This document shows positions 45,711-57,578 of a DNA stretch of 64,000 bases, one piece after another; the stretch's first letter is position 1, and every line of letters starts with the position of its first letter. The DNA is taken from positions 20,234-84,233 of the forward strand of contig JAHDBM010000002.1 in assembly GCA_020630395.1 (NCBI GenBank). The letters run 5' to 3'. Origin of the DNA: Flavobacteriales bacterium. Lineage in GTDB: Bacteria; Bacteroidota; Bacteroidia; Flavobacteriales_D; CAJJDF01. The translations under genes were made by a program, and so were the position numbers. The notes under the pieces are model-generated. The model was not told the origin of the DNA. It saw nothing but the letters and a program-made list of their open reading frames with translations, and searched no databases.

Positions 45711-47084
45711 TTAATATTTTCTTCTTAATGACTGTACTTTTAATTCATCTATTAATATTTTTTTAGATGTGGCATAATTATCAATAAATAAATAATGACC
45801 TTTTCCTAGTTCAGCAATTTCTTGCATATCAGTTGCATGCATAGCCTTATTTTTAATGCCGAGCACACTTATTTTAATATCTTTCTTTATATATTTTTTA
45901 ACTAGCTTATCTACGCTTGTATTCCCGCGATTAAAATCACCATCAGTTGCCATTATAACTTGATTATTAGCATTTGGAATAAAGTTTTTATACGCTTGTT
46001 TATACGCTAGTTTCATACCTTCTCCTCCTGCAGTCATTCCTTGAGCTTTAATAGATTGAATTTTCTCAATAATTTCTTTTTTAGCATTTCCTGTGGTTGT
46101 TTCCATTAATATTTTAGAAAAAGTAGAATAAGCCACTATGGTAATTTTATCTACACTTCTAAGTGTATGAGTCATTTCTATCATGGAGTTTTTTAGTAAA
46201 TCCAGTTTGCCATTATGATTCATAGATGAAGATACATCAAGTAAAAAAACAATATTATTTGGAGCTTGATAATATTCAACAAGAGTGTCTTCTGTTACAG
46301 CTGTGTCTTTTGTTTCGGTTGGAGTATTAATTGTATCGGGAGGAATGGATACTATAATAGAGGAATCGGTTTTAATTTCAATTATTTCATCAGGCTTCTC
46401 AGTAACTATAATAGACTCATCTTTATTTAAATATATAATAACCGAGTCATTACGTTTATTTAAATATTTAGCTCTTTCGTTAGGATAATAGTCTTTAGCA
46501 TTTGTAACTAAATAATAAAGCCCTAATGGTATTTTGGCAGTGGCTTTTCCTTTATTGTTAGTCATTAATGTAGTTAAAAGCATGCCATTAATAATTAATT
46601 TAATTTCAGCTTTTTTAATGGGTTCATTAGTTTTAGCGTCCAATACAAGAGCTTTAAACTTAAACTCTTGCTCTATAGTAATATCTTTTTGTCTAAAGCT
46701 AGGGCAATCCATCCCCATTGAGTTATCTATTTCCTTAATATTGCCCTTCATTGTAAACTCAAAAGGAGTCATAGCATGACTAAAATAAATAGGAGTTTTA
46801 ATAGTGAATTTCCCTTTTTTAATAGGGTTGTATTTAAATCGAAGAATAATTGAACTATCTGGCATTATAGCTTTTCCAGATGTTAGTACTCTAACTGTTC
46901 TCTCATTTTTTATGGTGAGTAAGAATGTTTTTTTACCTGTATTGTTAGTATAAATAACATCAACAAAGCGTTCATTTCCTTTATAGACTTCTCCAAAATC
47001 ATGAGATGTTTTACTAAATCCATTTTGCGAAAAGCTAGGAGATAAAAACGATATAATTAATAGTAATAATATAAACTTGCTCAT
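45711..47084 (-). CDS. Secreted von Willebrand factor type A (VWA) domain protein with N-terminal Ig-like (DUF1573-like) and carboxypeptidase-regulatory-like domains
   Basis: ORF 45711..47129 trimmed to the ATG at 47084, giving the signal peptide MSKFILLLLIISFLSPSFSQ. The MIDAS motif is in VFLLDVSSSMNHNGKLDLLK. Also VIMATDGDFNRG. Confidence 0.8.
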   Translation of the reverse strand: MSKFILLLLIISFLSPSFSQNGFSKTSHDFGEVYKGNERFVDVIYTNNTGKKTFLLTIKNERTVRVLTSGKAIMPDSSIILRFKYNPIKKGKFTIKTPIYFSHAMTPFEFTMKGNIKEIDNSMGMDCPSFRQKDITIEQEFKFKALVLDAKTNEPIKKAEIKLIINGMLLTTLMTNNKGKATAKIPLGLYYLVTNAKDYYPNERAKYLNKRNDSVIIYLNKDESIIVTEKPDEIIEIKTDSSIIVSIPPDTINTPTETKDTAVTEDTLVEYYQAPNNIVFLLDVSSSMNHNGKLDLLKNSMIEMTHTLRSVDKITIVAYSTFSKILMETTTGNAKKEIIEKIQSIKAQGMTAGGEGMKLAYKQAYKNFIPNANNQVIMATDGDFNRGNTSVDKLVKKYIKKDIKISVLGIKNKAMHATDMQEIAELGKGHYLFIDNYATSKKILIDELKVQSLRRKY

Positions 47085-47121
47085 ACGCTTTAGTAATGTT
47101 GTACTACGTATAGAACAAATA

Positions 47122-47820
47122 TTATGCAATTTTGTTTTTGACTTCTGATTTTAGACGATTTAAATCTGTAATAATAATCTTTTTCCCATCAATATTAATG
47201 ATGTTTTCTTTATTGAAATCAGAAATAGTTCGGATAGTAGATTCGGTTGTTACACCAGCTATATCACCAATTTCTTTTCTGGTAAGTTTAGATTTTATGG
47301 CAAAATTATTTTCGTCAATTCCGAAGGTGTCATTTAACAATAATAAAGCTTCAGCAATTTTTTCTCGAACAGATTTTTGGGCCATGTATATCACTTTTCT
47401 TTCAGCATTTTTTAAATCATCTGATAAGAGTTTCATTAGCTTTAATGAAAAGTCTGTATTTTGCTTAATAAGATTAAAAAAAGTGTCTTTAGGTATTTTA
47501 AATAGACGAGTTTCTTCAGTTGCAGATGCAGTAGCTCTGTAGGGGTCATTACTTATTAGTGAACGATATCCAAGTAAATCTCCAGGTTGTGCTAGTCTAA
47601 TAATCTGTTCTTTACCACTATCACCATACATGTGAACTTTAACAACACCTTTATACACAACATATAGCGCATTAGGGTATGCTCCTTCATTAAAGATTAC
47701 TTCACCTTTTTTAAAGGTTTTATTAATTTCTTCAAGGTTTAGTTGAGCAATTTGCTCTCTAGTAAGACTACTAAAGAAACAAAAGTGGGTGTTCTTATTT
47801 TCGGTTTTAAAAAACTGCAT
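47122..47820 (-). CDS. Crp/Fnr family transcriptional regulator
   Basis: 232 aa with a cNMP-binding-like barrel (KGEVIFNEGAYPNALYVVYKGVVKV...IIRLAQPGDLLGYRSL) and a C-terminal HTH (LTRKEIGDIAGVTTESTIRTISDF). Confidence 0.85.
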   Translation of the reverse strand: MQFFKTENKNTHFCFFSSLTREQIAQLNLEEINKTFKKGEVIFNEGAYPNALYVVYKGVVKVHMYGDSGKEQIIRLAQPGDLLGYRSLISNDPYRATASATEETRLFKIPKDTFFNLIKQNTDFSLKLMKLLSDDLKNAERKVIYMAQKSVREKIAEALLLLNDTFGIDENNFAIKSKLTRKEIGDIAGVTTESTIRTISDFNKENIINIDGKKIIITDLNRLKSEVKNKIA

Positions 47821-47875: not shown

Positions 47876-50800
47876 TTATTTTATTAACGTCACATGTCCT
47901 TTAAATTGTTTGTCAATATAATTGTTAAGCTTGTCAGTTAATACGACCTTCCAAACATAAACATCTGATTTACACATAACTCTTCTGCCTCCTTTTTTAT
48001 GCTTACCATCCCAAGCCCCATCAAAACTTGTCGTTTGGTAAATTAATTCTCCCCATCTATCATAAACTGTAAATTCATATTTATCAGGATTTACTCCACT
48101 TAGTACTGGTTTAAACACATCATTTATACCATCAGCAGATGGGCTAAATGCACTTGGTACATAAATAATAAATTCATCTTCTACGGCTATTAGTTTGCAA
48201 ATTGAATCAACACATCCAAAAGATGTGGTTGCCTCTAGACACACTAAATGAGAACCAATAAAAGGTGGTATTGGATGAATTGGATCAGATAAAGTAGAGG
48301 AATCTCCATCTGGGAAATACCATTTGTAATCTGTAGCTCCAAATGTAAGGTTTGTGAACGTAATGTTATTATTTAAAATAGTTGCTGGATTAGGATTTGC
48401 ATCAAAATCTGGCAAAGGCAATGGGTGTATACAAACCGAAGAATTGTAAGTTGTATCAACATCACAACCTTGTGTTGTTTTAATACTAAGCACAATGTCA
48501 TAACAGCCCTCTGTTGTATAAGTATGAGATGGTGAACAGTTGTTGGAGGCAGTATTTCCATCTCCAAAATCCCATGAGCAAGAAGAAACAAGCGCAGGAT
48601 TGGTGGTGTTATTAAAATTAACAGTTAATGAAGGCATACAGCCAAATAAAGTATCAATATCAAATGTAGGTTGAACAGTGTTATTAATAACTTCTATTTG
48701 TATTTGTGCAGATGATTTACAGCCAAAACCATTATCCTCAGTCCATTCTAATACATATAAGCCAGGGGTGCTAAAGGTAACAACAGCATTTGGATCATTT
48801 ACGTTTGGCGTAAATGTGGCGGTACCGGGTCCTGAAACAAAACTCCATGTTCCAATACCAACACTAGGAATTGCTCCAAGTTGCATAACTAATGCACATG
48901 AAGTGTCTTTGCTTCCGCCAGGATTAGCAACAGGATCTTCTACAAATAAAATAGAAACTGTATCTCTATCAAAGCATCCTAATCCATCAGTTTCAGCCCA
49001 AATAAATTCATGAACACCATATTGTGTAACAGTAACTCCAGCATTTGCTAAGGTGTTATTTGGAGCGAAACTAGCTATGCCTGGTCCTGAGTATAATGAC
49101 CAACTACCAGGAGGAAGTGTAATGCTTGGTGTTGCATTTAACACATAAGTATCTCCACAAATAGTATCATCTAATCCGGCATAAGCATCTAAATTCCCAG
49201 GGCCATCTAGCGTAATAGTAATGGAGTCAACACACCCTTTAAGATCGGTTACGATAACCTTATATGTGCCTGGATTAAGGCCGGTAGCTCTAGCTGTAGT
49301 TTGTGCAGCAGGATCATCCCATAAATAATTGAAAAAACCATTTCCTCCATCAGCTTTAACTTCAAGTTCTCCATCAAGAGTACTGTAGCAAGTTGGCATT
49401 ATGGTGTCTACAGGTTCAATAAAAACAACTGTATCAGGCTCATCAATTGCAAAGTCCATATAGTCAGTACATCCGTTAATATCGGTAACAAAAACTCTAT
49501 AATTTCCTGCAGGAACCGCATTTATACTATTTGCTCCAACACCAGAATTAATCACTGCTGAGGTAGTTAGGTTTGTCCAAGTATAATTAAATGCGGGAGT
49601 TCCCATATTGACACCAGCAGTGGCATCACCATCAAAACCACCATAACATGAAACATCAGTTGTGTTACTAATATATACAATTGGTGTTCCACCATTAGGA
49701 ATTGTAACATAAGTACTGTCGATACATCCACTAACATTATCGGTAACAATAACTTTATAGTTGCCTACAAATAAATTACTTGCAGTTTGAGTGGTTTGGG
49801 TATTTAAATCATCCCACAAGTATGAGAAATTTCCAGAACCACCCGTAGGGTTTATAGTTGCACTACCATTGTTGCCGCATGTAGCTCCATTAATTACTAC
49901 ATTGGTTAGATCTGGCAGTTCGTATACAGTAACTGTAATAGAGTCAACTGCATAGCAGTTACCATTGTAAGCAGTTATATAATAGGTTGTTGTAGTAGAA
50001 GGATTGGCAATGATATTTTTACCAGTATCTACATTAAGTCCAGTAAATGGTGTCCACACTATAGAATCGGCAGTAGTAGTTGCTGTTAATGCTGTATTTT
50101 CCCCTTTACAAATATTAGTGTTTCCTGCAATTGATATTGTTGGAATCGGTTGAACTATAACTGTTATAGTGTCTCTATTCGTCCATCCACAACAATCTGT
50201 ATTTACTCGAAGAGTAACGGTAAATGTGCCAGGAGTATTGAATTGCGTGTTTGTGATAGCTCTAGTAGTTGGATTGTTAGGTGTAATTCCTCCTCCAAAA
50301 TCCCAATCGAACTGAGTAGCAGTTATAGAAGAGTTAAAAGAAACAAATTCTCCAACACAAATTTGATAAACATCTGGTGCAATTGAATCTGCAGTTGTTT
50401 CTATTTCAGGGACTATAGTTGAGTTAAAAGAAATATTTACAAATCCTGTGTAAATATTAGGTCCGTAACCAATATTTTTTCTGCTCATAGTAGTATACTG
50501 ACTAGTAACAGGAGAACCATTAGGAGCAGGATTAGTAGCCCCAGTACCAAGTGACCATTGTGCAGGTGAACCCGCAGAGAAATCTACATTTGTATATGTA
50601 CAAGAAATGTTTTCAGCAAAGATAGTTGGTTGCCCAGTAAGATTAAAGTTACTAATTGAGGTAGAAAGTGCTGTTCCAGTTATATAAAGGTCTTGAGTAA
50701 TGCCCATAGCGCCATCTCCACCATCACCACCATCACCACCATCTCCACCATCTCCACCATCTCCACCACAGCCAACTTCATTACTGTCTTGGTTTCCTCC

Positions 50801-53734
50801 GTTTCCACCATTCCCCCCATTTCCTCCATTTCCTCCAAACCCTTTGTTTCCGCCTAATCCAGCATTTCCAGAAGACACATTACAATCTACAAAATTACCA
50901 TTAGTTTGGTTATTAACTATATAAACACCAAAAGATGCTCCTCCAGAATATCCGCCAGTTCCAGCTTCTCCGCCTTGTCCGCCAGCACCTCCACCGCCAC
51001 CACCAGCACCAGCACCATTAGAACAAAAAGTTCCGCCTTCACCAGCACCACCTCCGCCACCAGCACCACCAGATCCACCTTGTCCATGAATACCATCTGT
51101 GCCTTTAGAGGTTGGTTGCCATAAACCAGAAATTGGGTTGTGTGCTCCCGCAGGGGCATTTGTTCCGTTACATCCATTACTTCCGTTAGCACCATCTTGA
51201 CCTTGCTTTCCAGATTCAGTTGAGGTTACACAATAAACATTACTATTACACCCAGTCTCATTTCCTCTTATTCCGCCAGTAGCATTACCTAAAGTGGTAA
51301 GAATGCATGTAGTATTAGCAGGAACCGATCCACCAACTCCTCCAGTACCTCCATCTCTATCTTCTTCACCACCAGAAGCGCCACCACCACCAGCACCACC
51401 ATCTCGATATGTAGCGGCATTGTTTCCTGCTCCTCCATTTACACCTGTATTACAACAACCAGGAGAAGAAGAACCATTTCCTCCGATACTTCCTCCCACA
51501 GTTCCTCCGTTACCTCCACTACCTTCATCATCTTGGTCATCATCATTGCCGTCTTCACCATTTAATCCATTTCCTCCATTTAACCCAGTAATACCATTTG
51601 TGCCATCTAGTCCATCAGATGCATTTCCAGTAGAAATATAACATCTAACCACATCATAATTAGAACAGTTATTAAGGTATAATCCATAGGTTGATATTCC
51701 AATACTATCTGCAGTAGGAGCGTTAACTACTTCTATAGTTAAATCTTGTAACCTTAAAAAACTTGCATTAGCTATTTCAATAGCCATTAATCTTGGCACA
51801 CCATAAGTTGTATCAACATTTAGATCAGATCTTCTTATGGTAGTAGCTCCTTTCTGGCTAGTTTTTCTCCAATTATTTGCAGGATCAAATCCACCTTCAA
51901 TAGTTAAAGCACCTATTATTTCAGATATTGAAGAATCAATATCATAAGTGCCAATAGCCATTTTAATAGTAGCATTACTACATTGAGACATTAATAAAGC
52001 ATCCCAAATATTGGTAGGGTCAACAGTAGATAATCCACTTCCAGATCCACTAGGTGTAACATATATGTTGTTACATATTGCTGGAGGAGGAGGAGGGCTA
52101 ACTGTTATAAGAACACTGTCGGTTGTTGAACATCCATTAGAAGAGGTAGCTGTACATTTATAATATTGGGTGGTTGTTGGTGATGCAGATTCAACCGGAC
52201 CAACTGTTCCGCTAGGAGACCAAACAAAAGTGGCAGTAGGATCGGTAGAGAATGCAGTTAATGGAATGTTACTTCCTGCACAAATTGTTCCTCCATTAGG
52301 TGTTATGGAAATATCAGGAGAAGGAGTGATATTTAAGGTAACATTGTCCATTCTCGTACACCCACTAGGGTATGAGGCTGATACTGTATACACGACACCA
52401 CTATTAACTGTAGCAATTGGATTGGGGCAGTTTGTACAACTTAAACCTGCTGATGGAGTCCATGTAAATGTAGCTCCAGGTCCGGCATTAGCATATAACT
52501 GTAAAGGAGTTCCGCCACATACAGATGTGTCTGGTCCTGCAACTACTGGAGGGTCATTGCCTGGTATAACATTTATTTGATATACATATGTGTTTTTACC
52601 TGGAATTGGACAGGCATCATCTTCTACTGTAACAGAAAAATAATGTGTTCCAGTATCCGACTGACTTGGAGTCCAACAAAAACGTCCAGTTGGAGGTGTT
52701 CCTGATGTAGTAAAAGTACCAGAAGGAATTCCATTATTCCATGTCATAGTTACATTATCAGTATCTAAGTCAGAAGAATTAATATCAAAGCAAAAAGAAC
52801 TACCCCAACATATATCATAATCAAACTTTATTGGACTACCATTCACTCCGGTAGCTGTAGGTGGGTTATTGTTACAATTGATAACAATTATTTGCATATC
52901 TCTGGTTACTGATCCAACTATTACCCCAAGAGAATTACGCTCTACTATCTGAACAGTTACAACACCTTGTTGGATTCCATTAGGAGTAAAAGACATTTGC
53001 CCATTACTTGTGTTAAAATTAAAACCACCAGATGTTGTTATAGGATTTGTCACAGTATTACCAGCTGTAAATGGAATATTAGTACTAGCTGCACTTCTAG
53101 GATTTATAAGAGAATATGTCCAGGTATCTCCATCAACATTAATAGCTCCATGGTTGTATGAAGTGGGATTTCCACTACATACGTATGGAGCTGGTAAACT
53201 TGAAAATCTTGGAGAATTATTACATATTCCATTGGTATTATTTATAAGCGCTTCAACATAAATATTAGCCCCGCCTGGGTTCTGAAGATTTGTGATTGCT
53301 GCATTTCTACAGCATAATCCATAACTAATAGTCCAATCTGCACAATTAGCAGGTAAAGTAGCCACACCTGTGTATATATATCGTTCTACTCCGGGCAAAT
53401 TTCCACCATTACATGAAGTTAAATTTATTTGAGGGTTACATATTTGAGAAACTTCTACAGGGCCGGTTCTATTTCCTAATGGAATATTAAAGTTGTTTCC
53501 ACAAGATGCAGAACTAGCTCTAAGGGTAACATTAGCAGGAGCACCCATGCCATTACAATCTCTATAAAACATTAATCTAAAACGATATTGATTACCACCT
53601 AAACAGTCATATTCTAAATCTACAGCAACTCCATGAGAAGCTTGAATGTTTTGTGAAGTGAGAGAAAAAAGAAAAAAAAGTAATAGAAAAGGAATGGAAA
53701 TTTGTCTTACAATACTAAAGAATAGTGTTTTCAT
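47876..53734 (-). CDS. Giant cell-surface adhesin-like protein with T9SS type B sorting domain (gliding motility-associated C-terminal domain)
   Basis: 1952 aa with signal peptide ...IPFLLLFFLFSLTSQNIQA. The Cys-rich N-terminal domain reads VDLEYDCLGGNQYRFRLMFYRDCNG. It has many Ig/PKD-like modules, a beta-helix-like segment and a Gly-rich core. The C-terminus VPSAFSPSADGINDVFKPV...FTVYDRWGELIY....WDGK......DVYVWKV......GHVTLIK matches TIGR04131-type CTDs. Confidence 0.9.
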   Translation of the reverse strand: MKTLFFSIVRQISIPFLLLFFLFSLTSQNIQASHGVAVDLEYDCLGGNQYRFRLMFYRDCNGMGAPANVTLRASSASCGNNFNIPLGNRTGPVEVSQICNPQINLTSCNGGNLPGVERYIYTGVATLPANCADWTISYGLCCRNAAITNLQNPGGANIYVEALINNTNGICNNSPRFSSLPAPYVCSGNPTSYNHGAINVDGDTWTYSLINPRSAASTNIPFTAGNTVTNPITTSGGFNFNTSNGQMSFTPNGIQQGVVTVQIVERNSLGVIVGSVTRDMQIIVINCNNNPPTATGVNGSPIKFDYDICWGSSFCFDINSSDLDTDNVTMTWNNGIPSGTFTTSGTPPTGRFCWTPSQSDTGTHYFSVTVEDDACPIPGKNTYVYQINVIPGNDPPVVAGPDTSVCGGTPLQLYANAGPGATFTWTPSAGLSCTNCPNPIATVNSGVVYTVSASYPSGCTRMDNVTLNITPSPDISITPNGGTICAGSNIPLTAFSTDPTATFVWSPSGTVGPVESASPTTTQYYKCTATSSNGCSTTDSVLITVSPPPPPAICNNIYVTPSGSGSGLSTVDPTNIWDALLMSQCSNATIKMAIGTYDIDSSISEIIGALTIEGGFDPANNWRKTSQKGATTIRRSDLNVDTTYGVPRLMAIEIANASFLRLQDLTIEVVNAPTADSIGISTYGLYLNNCSNYDVVRCYISTGNASDGLDGTNGITGLNGGNGLNGEDGNDDDQDDEGSGGNGGTVGGSIGGNGSSSPGCCNTGVNGGAGNNAATYRDGGAGGGGASGGEEDRDGGTGGVGGSVPANTTCILTTLGNATGGIRGNETGCNSNVYCVTSTESGKQGQDGANGSNGCNGTNAPAGAHNPISGLWQPTSKGTDGIHGQGGSGGAGGGGGAGEGGTFCSNGAGAGGGGGGAGGQGGEAGTGGYSGGASFGVYIVNNQTNGNFVDCNVSSGNAGLGGNKGFGGNGGNGGNGGNGGNQDSNEVGCGGDGGDGGDGGDGGDGGDGAMGITQDLYITGTALSTSISNFNLTGQPTIFAENISCTYTNVDFSAGSPAQWSLGTGATNPAPNGSPVTSQYTTMSRKNIGYGPNIYTGFVNISFNSTIVPEIETTADSIAPDVYQICVGEFVSFNSSITATQFDWDFGGGITPNNPTTRAITNTQFNTPGTFTVTLRVNTDCCGWTNRDTITVIVQPIPTISIAGNTNICKGENTALTATTTADSIVWTPFTGLNVDTGKNIIANPSTTTTYYITAYNGNCYAVDSITVTVYELPDLTNVVINGATCGNNGSATINPTGGSGNFSYLWDDLNTQTTQTASNLFVGNYKVIVTDNVSGCIDSTYVTIPNGGTPIVYISNTTDVSCYGGFDGDATAGVNMGTPAFNYTWTNLTTSAVINSGVGANSINAVPAGNYRVFVTDINGCTDYMDFAIDEPDTVVFIEPVDTIMPTCYSTLDGELEVKADGGNGFFNYLWDDPAAQTTARATGLNPGTYKVIVTDLKGCVDSITITLDGPGNLDAYAGLDDTICGDTYVLNATPSITLPPGSWSLYSGPGIASFAPNNTLANAGVTVTQYGVHEFIWAETDGLGCFDRDTVSILFVEDPVANPGGSKDTSCALVMQLGAIPSVGIGTWSFVSGPGTATFTPNVNDPNAVVTFSTPGLYVLEWTEDNGFGCKSSAQIQIEVINNTVQPTFDIDTLFGCMPSLTVNFNNTTNPALVSSCSWDFGDGNTASNNCSPSHTYTTEGCYDIVLSIKTTQGCDVDTTYNSSVCIHPLPLPDFDANPNPATILNNNITFTNLTFGATDYKWYFPDGDSSTLSDPIHPIPPFIGSHLVCLEATTSFGCVDSICKLIAVEDEFIIYVPSAFSPSADGINDVFKPVLSGVNPDKYEFTVYDRWGELIYQTTSFDGAWDGKHKKGGRRVMCKSDVYVWKVVLTDKLNNYIDKQFKGHVTLIK
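50702..51625 (-). repeat. Glycine-rich low-complexity core (about 300 codons) with runs of Gly-X-Y triplets inside the adhesin
   Basis: The translation contains GLDGTNGITGLNGGNGLNGEDGND, GKQGQDGANGSNGCNGTNAPAG, GTDGIHGQGGSGGAGGGGGAGEGG, GNAGLGGNKGFGGNGGNGGNGGNGGN and GGDGGDGGDGGDGGDG. The region is locally G+C-richer than its flanks. The mirror-image Pro-rich ORFs on the + strand are artefacts of this. Confidence 0.9.
50712..50765 (-). repeat. 9-bp tandem repeat x6 (CCATCNCCA on + strand, encoding GGD x6)
   Basis: Units at 50712, 50721, 50730, 50739, 50748 and 50757 differ only at the T/A wobble position. A degenerate 9-bp series encoding GGN follows at about 50792-50836. Confidence 0.9.
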
Positions 53735-53869: not shown

Positions 53870-53877
53870 TACTTTTG
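53870..53877 (+). promoter_or_regulatory. Candidate -7 promoter box TACTTTTG for the LTD/TBDR/nuclease gene run
   Basis: Exact TAnnTTTG match, 31 nt upstream of the ATG at 53908. TTG triplets at 53843-53848 give plausible -33 spacing. Confidence 0.5.
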
Positions 53878-53907
53878 CAGCAACTTAAATTTAATGAATT
53901 AAATAAT

Positions 53908-54825
53908 ATGAAAACAATTTTACTTACTGTTTTTTCTTTAGCAGTTTCTTTAGCATCATTCTCTCAGTGTAATGATATCTTTATGTCAGAATACGTTCAT
54001 GGATGGTCAGCAAATAGAGCTATCGAAATATACAATCCAACATCAAACTCAGTTGATTTATCAGCTTATCAATTAAAAAGATATTCTAATGGTAGTACAT
54101 CAGCTTCATCTTTATACACGATTCAATTGTCGGGTGTGGTTCCTGCTAAAGGAACTTTTGTTATAGTTTCAGATACCGCTCAAGGAACAGTTTGGGATTC
54201 ACTTTATGCTAAGGCAGATACTTTTGTGTGTCCTGATTATAATGCAAATAGAACTTTTTTCTTTAATGGTAATGATGCTATGGTTCTATTTAAAGGATCA
54301 AGTGTTGTTGATGTTATTGGTAAAGTTGGTGAAGATCCAGGAACAGTAAATGGAGCAAATAATGGAGACCCTGATTATGGTTGGCCTACTGGAGTTCCAG
54401 TTGCATGGACAATTGATCATACATTAATTAGAAAGTCAACTATATTAACCGGTAATACAGTTGTGCAACCAGTATCTTATGTTCCTGCGACAGAATGGGA
54501 TTCACTACCAATTCATTCATTTGATGATTTAGGAAGTCATACTTGTGATTGTAATAGTATTGGAGTAGAAGAAAACAGTTTAGATTTAAACTTTGTGGTT
54601 TACCCTAACCCAAGTACAACTGGTTCAATCACAATTTTAGCTGCTGAAAGCGCAGAAAAAGTGGTTGTTTATAGTGTTTTAGGTAAAACAATTATAGAAA
54701 AACAATTAGCCAAAGGAACTACTCTTAATAAATTATCTACTAACGGTTGGGATAAAGGTGTTTATTTTGTGTCGTTAAATTTTGGGAAAGGAAAAATTAG
54801 TACAAAAAAGGTTACAATTAACTAG
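53908..54825 (+). CDS. Lamin tail domain (LTD)-containing secreted protein with T9SS type A CTD
   Basis: ORF 53875..54825 (TTG) trimmed to the ATG at 53908, giving the signal peptide MKTILLTVFSLAVSLASFSQ. The LTD pattern is FMSEYVHGWSANRAIEIYNPTSNSVDLSAYQLKRYSNG...GTFVIV...NGNDAMVLFKGSSVVDVIGKVGEDPG. CTD VVYPNPSTTGSITI...GVYFVSLN. Confidence 0.75.
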   Translation: MKTILLTVFSLAVSLASFSQCNDIFMSEYVHGWSANRAIEIYNPTSNSVDLSAYQLKRYSNGSTSASSLYTIQLSGVVPAKGTFVIVSDTAQGTVWDSLYAKADTFVCPDYNANRTFFFNGNDAMVLFKGSSVVDVIGKVGEDPGTVNGANNGDPDYGWPTGVPVAWTIDHTLIRKSTILTGNTVVQPVSYVPATEWDSLPIHSFDDLGSHTCDCNSIGVEENSLDLNFVVYPNPSTTGSITILAAESAEKVVVYSVLGKTIIEKQLAKGTTLNKLSTNGWDKGVYFVSLNFGKGKISTKKVTIN

Positions 54826-54836
54826 AAATAAGCAGT

Positions 54837-57578
54837 ATGCTAAAAAGAAGTTTATTCTTAATCCTATCTCTTTTAACAGGGATAGGATTTTTTGCTCAAA
54901 CAGGAGTTGTCAAGGGAACAATTAGTGATGAAGTTACTGGAGAATTACTCTTTGGAGCTAGTGTAGTTTATGAAGAAGGAAAAGGAGTAACGTCTGATTT
55001 TGACGGGAAGTATGAATTAACATTACCTTACGGAGAATATACGATTACGTATTCTTTTGTGGGTTTAAAGCCTATCCAAAGGAAAGTAACAGTATCAGGA
55101 AAGTCAGTTGTTTTAGATGTTAAAATGAAATCTAAAGTGATGAAAGAGGTTGAGATTGTTGCTGATATTGCAAAAGAGAGAGAAACTCCAGTTGCATTTA
55201 CAAACGTTTCTGCTGCAAAATTAGAGGAAGAATTAGCTTCTCAAGACCTGCCAATGGTATTAAACAGCACCCCTTCAGTTTATGCTACTCAACAAGGAGG
55301 TGGAGATGGTGATGCAAGGATTACAATTAGAGGTTTTAGTCAAAGAAATCTTGCGGTAATGATTGATGGTGTTCCAGTTAATGATATGGAAAATGGCTGG
55401 GTGTATTGGTCTAATTGGTTCGGTTTAGATATGGTAACGAGTACAATTCAAGTTCAAAGAGGATTAGGAATATCAAAACTTGCAGTTCCATCAGTTGGAG
55501 GTACAATGAATATTTTTACCAAAGGGATAGATGCTAAACCAGAAACAAAATTAAAGCTTGAATTTGGTAATAATGCATTCATGAGACAATCAGTAAGTGT
55601 TAACTCTGGAAGATTGAAAGGAGACTGGGGTTTTACCGGAGCTTTTTCAAGAAAGACAGGAAACGGTTGGGTAGATCAAAACTATACTGATGGTTATTTT
55701 TACTATGGAAAGATCGATAAGAAAATAAAAAATCACTTATTAAGTTTCTCCGTATTTGGTGCGCCACAAAGACATGGTCAAAGATCATTTAAAAGGCCAA
55801 TTTCATTTTACGACACAACAATTGCTCAAAACCTAGGAGTATCTAAAGAAGCTATTGACGCTTATGACCAATCACTAGGTTCTCAATATGGTTTTCAGCA
55901 TAATGAGTTTTATGGAAGGTATACCACAACAGATGGTAGAAGTGTTTTATTAAGAGAAAGAGAAAACTATTATCATAAGCCACAAATAACACTTAAAGAT
56001 TTTTGGCAAGTCAATGATCGTTTTTACATATCTAATATAGCTTATTTGTCAATAGGAAATGGAGGAGGAACTGGAATAACAGGAAGACCGGGAAATGATT
56101 CAACAGGTAGGTTAGACGCTCAATATATGTATGATAATAACTTAGCAGGAGATTTTGGTCCAAACATAGATCCTGCATACCACCCTACAGATTTAAAGGC
56201 TAATTCTTATAAGCGTTCAAGTATTAATAATCATTTTTGGTATGGACTACTTTCAACTGGAACTTTTGTTAAAGATGAAAACTTAACATTATCTGGTGGG
56301 ATTGATTTAAGAAGTTACAAAGGTGTTCATTATCGTGAAGTATATGATTTAGTTGGAGCTGATTATATTGTTAATGGAGACAATGTTAATGATCCAAATC
56401 TAGTTAAAAGAGTAGGTGATAAAATATTGTACCATGACGAAGGATTAGTTAGATGGGGAGGTTTATTTGCTCAAGGTGAATATAAAAAAGATAATTGGTC
56501 GGCATTTGTAAGTATATCTGGATCTGCTTCGGCATATAAAGCAGTAGATTACTTTAGAAAGAAAACATTACAAGTTGGAGATACTACTTTAGAAATAGGT
56601 AGGGATGATACAATTGTATATCAAGGTAATGAATATAATGCAAGCTCTGAAGGACTAGAAACGTACAATACAGGATGGAAAACATTACCGGGTTATACAA
56701 TTAAAACGGGAGCAAATTATATTTTAGATGAATTTTCAAATGTATTTGTAAACTTAGGGTACTTAAATAATGCACCTAAATTTGCGAATGTAATTGATCA
56801 ACAAAATAATTTTGTAGAAAATTCTGTTGGCGAAAAAGTTAGAGCTTTTGAATTAGGTTATGCCTATAAAAAGAAAAAGCTGGCTATTAACGTTAATGGA
56901 TATTACACAAGTTGGTTAGATAGACCATACTCTATAAGTCGACAAAATGAAGATAATGAAAACTTTACCGCAAATATTACCATGGATGCTTTACACATGG
57001 GAGCAGAGTTTGAAATAGCCTACAATTTATTAAGTAACCTTACTTTAGAAGGTGTTATAGCATTAGGAGATTGGACATGGCAATCAGCAAAAGATAGCAT
57101 TGTGTTTTTAGATAATGCGGGTAATACAATTCGAGATGGTTTTGGAAATGTACAAACAGCTTCCTTTGATGCGAAAGGAGTTCATGTTGGAGATGCTGCA
57201 CAAACTCAGTTAGGGGCTAAAATTAGATGGAATTTCACTAGAAGGTCATATATTAAAGCACAATACACTTGGTTTGATAGGTATTTTGCTGATTTTGAAC
57301 CTGGGAACCTAAATGGTGTAAACGCAAGGAGAGAATCATGGCAAATACCAGCTTATGGTTTAATGGATATCCATGCAGGAACAAGCTTTATGTTTAGTGG
57401 AGCTCCTATAAGTATAAGAATGAGTATTTTAAATGCATTAGATGCAGTGTATATAACAGATGCACAAAATAACGATCAATTTTCTGGACAACCATATAAT
57501 AATTTTGACGCTCAATCTGCTACAGTGTTTTTTGGTCAAGGAAGAAGATATAATTTCTCAGTTCAAGTTAAATTTTAA
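54837..57578 (+). CDS. TonB-dependent receptor with N-terminal carboxypeptidase-regulatory-like domain
   Basis: 913 aa. GVVKGTISDEVTGELLFGASVV is CarboxypepD_reg-like. The plug region is PVAFTNVSAAKLEE...ARITIRGFSQRNLAVMIDGVPVND. The terminal beta-strand is GRRYNFSVQVKF. Confidence 0.9.
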   Translation: MLKRSLFLILSLLTGIGFFAQTGVVKGTISDEVTGELLFGASVVYEEGKGVTSDFDGKYELTLPYGEYTITYSFVGLKPIQRKVTVSGKSVVLDVKMKSKVMKEVEIVADIAKERETPVAFTNVSAAKLEEELASQDLPMVLNSTPSVYATQQGGGDGDARITIRGFSQRNLAVMIDGVPVNDMENGWVYWSNWFGLDMVTSTIQVQRGLGISKLAVPSVGGTMNIFTKGIDAKPETKLKLEFGNNAFMRQSVSVNSGRLKGDWGFTGAFSRKTGNGWVDQNYTDGYFYYGKIDKKIKNHLLSFSVFGAPQRHGQRSFKRPISFYDTTIAQNLGVSKEAIDAYDQSLGSQYGFQHNEFYGRYTTTDGRSVLLRERENYYHKPQITLKDFWQVNDRFYISNIAYLSIGNGGGTGITGRPGNDSTGRLDAQYMYDNNLAGDFGPNIDPAYHPTDLKANSYKRSSINNHFWYGLLSTGTFVKDENLTLSGGIDLRSYKGVHYREVYDLVGADYIVNGDNVNDPNLVKRVGDKILYHDEGLVRWGGLFAQGEYKKDNWSAFVSISGSASAYKAVDYFRKKTLQVGDTTLEIGRDDTIVYQGNEYNASSEGLETYNTGWKTLPGYTIKTGANYILDEFSNVFVNLGYLNNAPKFANVIDQQNNFVENSVGEKVRAFELGYAYKKKKLAINVNGYYTSWLDRPYSISRQNEDNENFTANITMDALHMGAEFEIAYNLLSNLTLEGVIALGDWTWQSAKDSIVFLDNAGNTIRDGFGNVQTASFDAKGVHVGDAAQTQLGAKIRWNFTRRSYIKAQYTWFDRYFADFEPGNLNGVNARRESWQIPAYGLMDIHAGTSFMFSGAPISIRMSILNALDAVYITDAQNNDQFSGQPYNNFDAQSATVFFGQGRRYNFSVQVKF

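Follow-up and report, generated by a model that had tools for sequence, protein, structure and literature searches.

A conserved beta-helix module with an in-register glycine skeleton, a candidate polyglycine-II lattice, in a type IX-secreted surface protein of a Flavobacteriales bacterium

Does a long, glycine-rich and proline-poor tract in the middle of a large bacterial surface protein form a folded structure and, if so, of what kind? The tract in question lies in a 64,000-nucleotide stretch of DNA from a Flavobacteriales bacterium (assembly GCA_020630395.1, contig JAHDBM010000002.1, positions 20,234 to 84,233 of the forward strand), hereafter the window, whose numbering is used throughout. 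Window positions 50702-51625 encode residues 704-1011 of a 1952-residue protein. Folded lattices made of glycine alone, in polyglycine-II (PGII) conformation, are among the rarest protein architectures, and to our knowledge the solved PGII structures come from only a few families, not related to one another: snow-flea antifreeze proteins, Obg, acetophenone carboxylase, gp38-type adhesins and ALK/LTK. Taking all the evidence together, we consider it probable, with considerable room left for doubt, that the tract is part of a domain of ~480 residues, folded and extracellular, in which a beta-helix carries a PGII lattice that acts as a binding surface.

The periodic order of the tract is evident from its composition. 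Glycine accounts for 115 of the 308 residues (37%), and residues 704-1011 contain eight runs of at least four Gly-X-Y triplets where 3.3 are expected, five of which hold six to nine triplets (708-731, 842-859, 878-898, 956-982 and 988-1008). Compared with 5000 composition-preserving shuffles of the same residues, Gly-Gly pairs are strongly enriched at lag 3 (76 vs 42.3 +/- 4.1; z = 8.2) and also at lags 6 (z = 5.4) and 9 (z = 3.1), with lags 1, 2, 4, 5, 7 and 8 at expectation. A preliminary description of this sequence had reported a Gly-X-Y region at these positions with at least five runs of six to nine triplets and a run of five or six GGD units; the region is real, every string quoted there is present, and the GGD run has six units. 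Its count of three prolines was too low, since there are five (758, 805, 861, 867 and 874), but none of them falls within a run of at least four triplets, so that its longest triplet runs are indeed free of proline. The two motifs that lead into the runs, described there as near-identical beta-helix rungs, share 12 of 27 residues (44%) and are thus not near-identical, but they do correspond to equivalent three-strand rungs in the structural models presented below.

Judged by alignment, this stretch makes up the half rich in glycine of a conserved ~480-residue domain (~553-1030) and is not a strain-specific expansion. A word-indexed search with residues 550-1063 matched 171 proteins, and an exhaustive phmmer scan over 1.84 billion cluster representatives found 774 representative clusters with E up to 1e-3; 406 remain at E <= 1e-10 and 162 at E <= 1e-30. 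The module is widespread among bacterial surface proteins. Its carriers are mostly Bacteroidota cargo of the T9SS (type IX secretion system), together with some Bradymonadales/Myxococcota proteins, and a scan of genome contigs with the single protein gave 13 loci, all in Bacteroidota metagenome-assembled genomes (MAGs). Two architectures recur. In the first, the module stands right behind the signal peptide of proteins of ~650-1300 aa, most of which have a type A T9SS end (PF18962); in the second, it begins at about residue 540-575 of giant proteins (1300-5400 aa) that share their N-terminal ~550 residues. Most copies of the module are found in type A cargo, not type B. Our full-text literature searches found no paper that links T9SS or Bacteroidota proteins with PGII or polyproline-II (PPII) lattices; the preliminary description had likewise seen no such module described for T9SS type B cargo, and the module itself is not specific to type B. 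Pfam and NCBIfam scans of the 1952-aa protein and ten homologs gave no family that covers the module, nor any match to Beta_helix, Pectate_lyase and similar Pfam families, and searches of PDB sequences with the family profile and with a GGx-rich segment of 143 aa returned nothing beyond low-complexity noise and T9SS-tail matches to the homologs.

The module also occurs in Bradymonas sediminis, Persicimonas caeni and one Myxococcota MAG, following Cys-rich repeats and without a T9SS domain, implying that it is independent of T9SS. In three Bradymonadales/Myxococcota proteins (P0065, P0079 and P0111) the module is C-terminal, and the N-terminal part carries repeated Cys-rich motifs of the C-x-DCDG-x-NGCE type and a lipoprotein-like signal. 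In the short homologs the module is N-terminal, above Ig-like/PKD stalk domains and a C-terminal T9SS anchor, and this order would place it distal to the cell. There (P0005, P0006, P0024 and P0038) it begins with Gln-Cys immediately after the hydrophobic signal (…FSQCDVLYV, …FGQCDIVYV, …IAQCIIRYV); the cysteine corresponds to C554 of the 1952-aa protein and is conserved in at least 90% of sequences. An N-terminal glutamine exposed by signal cleavage recalls the pyroglutamate formation of Bacteroidota secreted proteins.

We modelled the domain with AlphaFold2 (AF2), using a 67-sequence family alignment. The model of residues 550-1045 reached a mean predicted local distance difference test score (pLDDT) of 88.3 and a predicted template-modelling score (pTM) of 0.82, with the five models ranging from 85.8 to 88.3, and a model of residues 700-1015 gave a pLDDT of 88.5 and a pTM of 0.82 with no DSSP helix or strand. 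In the larger model DSSP assigns three-strand rungs at 648-669, 681-702 (STYGLYLNNCSNYDVVRCYIST) and 934-954 (SFGVYIVNNQTNGNFVDCNVS), and a further strand at 1013-1020; behind the third strand of successive rungs come two insertions, 703-933 and ~955-1012. Within these stretches the glycine blocks have pLDDT values mostly of 90-98 and are neither helix nor strand, and a lineage-specific loop at ~809-839 drops to a pLDDT near 50 (48-55). At the level of the models, this shows a confident glycine-rich fold, neither alpha nor beta, inserted twice into a short beta-helix of a surface-anchored protein. The parts are laid out as follows.

47876..53734, minus strand: gene of a large T9SS type B cargo of the cell surface, 1952 aa (list of open reading frames; two Pfam PKD matches and CHU_C; NCBIfam TIGR04131)
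50645..52087, minus strand: the whole conserved module of beta-helix and putative glycine lattice, residues 550-1030 (homolog searches, 67-sequence alignment, AF2 model)
51629..52078, minus strand: N-terminal cap and first rungs of the predicted right-handed parallel beta-helix, residues 553-702, the last rung being STYGLYLNNCSNYDVVRCYIST (AF2 strands at model residues 99-153; Foldseek)
50936..51628, minus strand: glycine-rich excursion 1, residues 703-933, with conserved glycine runs R1-R7, all-Gly at 892-897 and at 911-919 (map of conserved glycines, length table, pLDDT)
51212..51328, minus strand: lineage-specific, Cys-containing variable loop within excursion 1, residues 803-841 (low alignment occupancy, pLDDT 48-55)
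50870..50935, minus strand: second beta-helix rung (SFGVYIVNNQTNGNFVDCNVSS) between the two excursions, residues 934-955 (AF2 strands, in model numbering, at 385-393, 397-400 and 403-405)
50702..50869, minus strand: glycine-rich excursion 2, residues 956-1011, with (GGx)n runs R8 and R9, including five GGN and six GGD units (length table, glycine conservation, pLDDT 94-98)
50645..50701, minus strand: closing beta-helix strand or strands after excursion 2 (ITQDLYITGTALSTS...), residues 1012-1030 (AF2 strand at model residues 464-471)
50712..50768, minus strand: 9-bp DNA tandem repeat that codes for the GGD run, 6.3 copies with 95% matches (Tandem Repeats Finder, sequence read)

As modelled, the stacked three-strand rungs are a right-handed parallel beta-helix of the pectate-lyase-like type. 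The strand order agrees with the Foldseek results for the whole model, in which Pel9A (1ru4) ranks first (E = 8e-4, probability 1.0), followed by pectin methylesterases, rhamnogalacturonan lyases and phage tailspikes, and this bears out the beta-helix-like context suggested in the preliminary description. These alignments extend over ~180-200 columns only, with a template-modelling score (TM) of ~0.2, indicating that only part of the domain is beta-helix. Like Pel9A (1RU4), the module has three-strand rungs and an N-terminus that fits the usual opening pattern of beta-helices (…YV…G…GT…P…A…A..GD.I…GTY…); unlike proteins of the Pel9A type, it has only ~4-5 rungs, and more than half of the domain consists of glycine excursions (TM ~0.2 over ~197 columns). 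No sign of a catalytic site came to light, though no search aimed at one was made.

For the glycine part alone, Foldseek found nothing significant in PDB or BFVD, and no fold can be assigned to it by similarity. The sole PDB matches, both non-significant (probability 0.01), were 9d93_Qa from the Bxb1 tail tip (E = 1.1) and 7ypx_A from the Pam3 fibre (E = 6.9). Both entries have been reported to contain a Gly-rich lattice domain resembling that of gp38 from phage S16 (9d93, PMC13243192; 7ypx, PMC9608196). The near-matches in BFVD, every one a PE-PGRS, glycine-rich or collagen-like protein, superposed poorly on the global scale. We read these results as a probable similarity of local conformation, with no known global fold, and not as proof.

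The family alignment offers a more specific indication. PGII helices have three residues per turn, and positions that face a neighbouring helix must be glycine (10.1101/2023.11.25.568672; PMC10216338); a helix at the edge of a lattice should therefore read Gxx, an intermediate one GGx and one that is surrounded on all sides only glycine. All three classes are present in the family conservation map: Gxx at 708-729 and 839-863; GGx at 740-747, 779-789, 886-891, 956-979 and 988-1008; and conserved all-Gly runs at 892-897 and 911-919. Among the 67 sequences, 9 glycine columns are invariant and 59 are conserved at 90% or more; they stay in register with a period of 3, separated by freely varying columns of high entropy. 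The nine conserved glycine runs span ~176 residues and are interspersed with conserved non-glycine anchors (EDRDGG, FCxxG, SFGxY and EVGxGG). Proline in the homologs is almost solely the residue before a conserved glycine, in seven successive triplets of 708-731 and along 839-865, a placement compatible with a PPII-like backbone along whole runs. The conserved all-Gly runs would imply at least three layers, as in gp38, Pam3 gp24 and ALK and unlike the two-layer snow-flea proteins. From the confident DSSP assignment of neither helix nor strand, the Gxx/GGx/GGG conservation, the placement of proline and the architectural parallel with gp38 discussed below, we infer that the glycine runs adopt PGII backbone geometry. 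The preliminary description had proposed a scaffold of PGII type or another non-collagen glycine scaffold; our data support it, with the PGII geometry being the part that goes beyond direct observation.

The alternative that fares best among its competitors, though we still regard it as unlikely, is a Gly-rich beta-solenoid or a Ca2+-binding beta-roll, in which the glycine runs would be additional beta-helix rungs and ladders of Asp or Asn would bind calcium. Its appeal is easily seen: genuine rungs of beta-helix border the runs on either side, R8 and R9 (~24-26 residues) are near the length of one rung (22 aa), the GGD and GGN arrays would present regular ladders of carboxylates and amides, and PE_PGRS repeats were reportedly once read in the same way. 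However, the glycine blocks contain no DSSP strands despite the high confidence of the models, and the Foldseek alignments with beta-helix enzymes stop at ~180-200 columns (TM ~0.2). The period is 3 and not the 9 of an RTX beta-roll; the nonapeptide GGxGxDxUx, sought with a regular expression, occurs zero times in the whole protein, and there is no match to the Pfam family HemolysinCabind. Nor is Asp or Asn conserved at the x position, where homologs have N, D, K, A, V, I, S or H.

Returning to the proposed PGII lattice, its lengths and rates of change also bear on whether the tract is folded at all. Excursion 2, counted as 956-1008, measures 53 aa in the majority of 66 homologs, those of Bradymonas, Persicimonas and Myxococcota among them, and the second rung has 22 aa in almost all of them. 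Excursion 1 is 231 aa long here and 123-238 aa in homologs, with the variation lying mainly in one loop; the loop at 803-841 is partly deleted or replaced in P0121, an ortholog from a syntenic locus (L015). This ortholog is 73% identical overall and ~80% identical over the first 717 residues, and it keeps the glycine segment. Between the two proteins, 82% of the glycines in residues 704-1011 are conserved vs 32% of the other residues. By the Nei-Gojobori method, the non-glycine positions of 704-1011 have a nonsynonymous rate (dN) of 0.67 and a ratio to the synonymous rate (dN/dS) of ~0.58, compared with 0.10-0.17 and 0.06-0.10 in the flanking regions, a contrast that is qualitative only, because the two orthologs have reached saturation in dS (1.1-1.8) and their low-complexity sequence aligns with uncertainty. 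An immutable glycine skeleton with a rapidly changing surface and a loop of variable length is what would be expected of a scaffold for display or recognition; positive selection is not demonstrated by these sequence comparisons.

These comparisons speak most directly to the possibility that the tract is an intrinsically disordered, low-complexity glycine linker, a flexible spacer generated by replication slippage. Its glycine content of 37% and low complexity, the fast evolution of the non-glycine positions, the internal loop at ~809-839 with its pLDDT near 50, and the DNA repeats under the GGD run (95%) and the GGN run (83%) would all suit such a spacer. Against it, the glycines are conserved in register across phyla, excursion 2 has a constant length in most homologs, conserved non-glycine anchors stand between the glycine runs, and most glycine blocks are predicted at a pLDDT of 90-98, with a pTM of 0.82 in two constructs and agreement among five models. 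The combination of constant length and in-register glycine is unlike that of slippage-prone low-complexity tracts, despite the 95%-perfect 9-bp repeat, and we judge a disordered spacer to be decidedly improbable. The tract is thus neither predicted to be disordered without conserved periodicity nor missing from orthologs, being retained in the syntenic ortholog and recovered across the 774 clusters. As for the repeats themselves, the five GGN units (window 50793-50837) are encoded, like the six GGD units, by a 9-bp tandem repeat (83% matches), and the ortholog P0121 has mixed GGS/GGN/GGD where the 1952-aa protein has its GGD and GGN runs; the DNA repeats suggest recent homogenisation of the sequence. 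Despite these repeats, the glycine segment after the second rung keeps its family-wide length of 53 aa.

As a plausible arrangement, the platform of the module would be a short right-handed parallel beta-helix with a pectate-lyase-like cap and about 4-5 rungs. The chain would leave it past the third strand of two successive rungs, forming glycine excursions of ~231 and ~56 residues that would lie side by side, since both exit at the same corner of neighbouring rungs. Both excursions may then pack into one compact multilayer lattice of left-handed PGII helices, with glycine at every position that faces a neighbour: Gxx at the edge, GGx between, and all-Gly segments (GGGGGG and GGGGGGGGG) in the buried centre. 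Outward residues and a few loops would remain free to vary, thereby giving a rigid, densely hydrogen-bonded surface for display or binding, distal to the membrane in the T9SS-anchored protein, whose outward side chains and loops may bind a ligand or a surface. The N-terminal and presumably cell-distal head position in the short homologs would suit the tip of an adhesin, and an adhesive or ligand-binding role is what we infer for the module.

The closest architectural parallel is the receptor-binding protein gp38 of phage S16. In that protein, two turns (18 and 77 residues) of a five-ringed beta-helix are extended into a three-layer 'polyglycine sandwich', and ten Gly-rich motifs alternate with hypervariable segments that set the host range (PMC6851490). 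Like gp38 (PDB 6F45), the module has two glycine excursions that extend turns of a short (~5-rung) beta-helix, conserved Gly-rich motifs with variable segments between them, a long central all-Gly motif (GGGGGGGG in gp38; GGGGGGGGG at 911-919 here) and an extracellular, distal site on a fibre-like protein; the resemblance of the excursions is one of architecture only. In contrast to gp38, the glycine part of the module is far larger (~176 residues in conserved runs vs 73 residues in 10 motifs), its beta-helix resembles right-handed helices of the pectate-lyase type with an N-terminal cap, and it belongs to bacterial T9SS cargo and not to a phage tip. Nothing in the sequences appears to support common descent of the two, and membership of the gp38 family by homology was considered and set aside.

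Other known glycine lattices share single features with the module. Pam3 gp24 (7YPX) and ALK/LTK (7N00, 7LIR) use a multilayer glycine lattice with a buried all-Gly helix, in gp24 the motif GGGGxGG, for ligand or receptor recognition (PMC9608196). As is proposed for the module, they have a glycine lattice grafted onto a beta-rich scaffold; unlike it, their scaffold is a TNF-like beta-sandwich and not a beta-helix, and the match of 7YPX to the glycine-only model was non-significant (E = 6.9, TM 0.10), with no sequence similarity in the PDB searches. The GGx-dominated repeats of mycobacterial PE_PGRS proteins, also on surface-exposed bacterial proteins, resemble those of the module, and the top BFVD near-match of the glycine-only model is annotated PE-PGRS; the PGII sandwich of PE_PGRS is known from prediction only (PMC10216338). 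However, PGRS domains differ greatly in the number of helices and tolerate large indels, whereas the length of the module is fixed, and the module lacks a PE domain and the GRPLI motif, belongs to another phylum and is secreted by T9SS instead of ESX-5. Scl-type collagen-like proteins and RTX beta-rolls likewise combine Gly-rich repeats with secretion from bacteria, but those of their defining features that were examined are absent from the module.

A reading that keeps the PGII fold and changes its task would have the lattice bind ice or minerals instead of serving as an adhesin. Bacteroidota do export beta-helical ice-binding proteins, and the regular, small or polar outward residues on a flat glycine scaffold might serve such a purpose. 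Snow-flea antifreeze proteins are themselves PGII bundles (bioRxiv 10.1101/2023.11.25.568672), and those of known structure (3BOG, 7JJV) have, like the module, a Gly tripeptide periodicity through helices and turns, little proline, and small or polar outward residues. They are, however, small (~80 aa), standalone two-layer bundles, while the module would have at least three layers. The outward residues, mostly Asn, Asp, Ser, Ala and Thr in the 1952-aa protein and mostly A, N, S, T, D and G in homologs, are not conserved in the module but highly variable, differing even between orthologs, where an ice-matching surface would be expected to be regular; moreover, the metagenomes that hold the family are very diverse, and marine Bradymonadales have it as well. 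We therefore give ice or mineral binding very little probability. A 2026 report of an 'antifreeze-like' glycine-rich beta-helix protein from Flavobacterium concerns an ordinary, beta-sheet-rich protein that is unrelated to the module.

Least probable of all is a collagen-like triple helix, in which the Gly-X-Y runs would trimerise into a bacterial stalk: a glycine in each triplet over runs of as many as 9, G-A-P-G-A-P in some homologs with Pro tolerated at the Y position, and weak profile matches to collagen chains (E = 0.1-1) are outweighed by the absence of a Pfam Collagen (PF01391) match at E <= 0.1 and of any trimerisation domain found, by runs of at most 9 triplets that change phase and are broken by conserved non-collagen sequence and beta-helix rungs, by GGx or all-Gly sequence over much of the region with Pro at 5 of 308 residues, and by a monomer that is predicted to be compact (pTM 0.82).

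Several observations weigh against a PGII lattice with a binding role, in addition to the saturated dS and uncertain alignment that limit the comparison of rates, in which dN/dS never exceeds 1. Foldseek retrieved none of the classic PGII structures 3BOG, 7JJV, 6F45, 1LNZ, 5L9W and 7N00. The confidence of AlphaFold2 on Gly-rich repeats has probably little experimental calibration, and the PGII models of PE_PGRS are likewise unverified predictions. Comparison of the family profile with S16 gp38 by hhalign gave a probability of 0.2%, and a tblastn search of 50,697 phage genomes returned no match. With regard to function, one standalone homolog lies amid housekeeping genes with no conserved partner, supporting no specific function, and the gene contexts of this homolog and of the ortholog locus suggest no ligand.

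If the lattice with its binding surface is nevertheless correct, a cellular family of wide distribution would carry a highly conserved, fixed-length glycine lattice on a beta-helix, enlarging the PGII class and offering a robust bacterial model for PGII folding and design. Phages and bacteria would then have converged on a beta-helix with a glycine lattice as a recognition device; many giant T9SS surface proteins of environmental Bacteroidota would gain a structural and functional handle on a part that is conserved and unannotated, and annotators would have reason not to mask regions of this sort as disordered or of low complexity. What would be new is the biological setting, a PGII lattice borne by a beta-helix being a structural kind already known. 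More tentatively, and with chances that we would put somewhat below even, the protein may stand as the founding member of a large bacterial domain family without annotation (several hundred clusters at 50% identity), in which a pectate-lyase-like beta-helix bears one of the largest natural PGII lattices (~170 residues, an estimated 15-19 helices, at least three layers). Such a lattice would have arisen separately from those of phage gp38 and metazoan ALK and yet have reached their answer, a rigid scaffold bonded entirely through its backbone on which rapidly evolving side chains and loops are presented. It would be the head that recognises ligands on T9SS-anchored surface fibrils of Bacteroidota and, in predatory Bradymonadales, on secreted proteins rich in Cys.

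The two ends of the protein lie outside the module and are listed here.

47882..48160, minus strand: T9SS type B C-terminal sorting domain (CHU_C / TIGR04131), residues 1859-1951 (Pfam, NCBIfam)
52088..53734, minus strand: signal peptide and conserved N-terminal 'head' region, residues 1-549 (blastp against representatives)

Judging from its family matches, the 1952-aa protein is T9SS type B cargo, and the preliminary description labelled it correctly: both C-terminal matches lie above their cut-offs, with 43.4 bits for PF13585 CHU_C in Pfam (cut-off 27, residues 1859-1935) and 41.2 bits for TIGR04131 in NCBIfam (cut-off 35). Residues 1-549 form a separate conserved unit, which is Cys-rich and starts with SHGVAVDLEYDCLGGNQYRF; it precedes the beta-helix and glycine module in ~40 or more giant proteins (1300-5400 aa). 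Blastp matches to this unit were obtained in 45 representatives, most of them near full length, and its matches to Big_9 and tandem-95 are weak.

Directly downstream of the gene and on the same strand (45711-47820, minus), the window encodes a Crp/Fnr-type regulator (cNMP_binding and HTH_Crp_2) and a DUF1573 and VWA protein, whose reading frame overlaps that of the regulator by 8 bases. Downstream of its adhesin gene, the ortholog locus has instead a 172-aa open reading frame with no Pfam match, shortly before the end of the contig; due to this difference, the downstream arrangement may not be conserved. Divergently upstream are a 316-aa Lamin-tail-domain (LTD) protein with a type A T9SS tail (53875-54825, plus strand) and a 913-aa TonB-dependent-receptor-like protein with CarboxypepD_reg and Plug domains (54837-57578, plus strand). 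Genes for an LTD/Por_Secre_tail protein and a TonB-dependent receptor are also syntenic with the adhesin gene on the ortholog contig (locus L015, 2141-5819).

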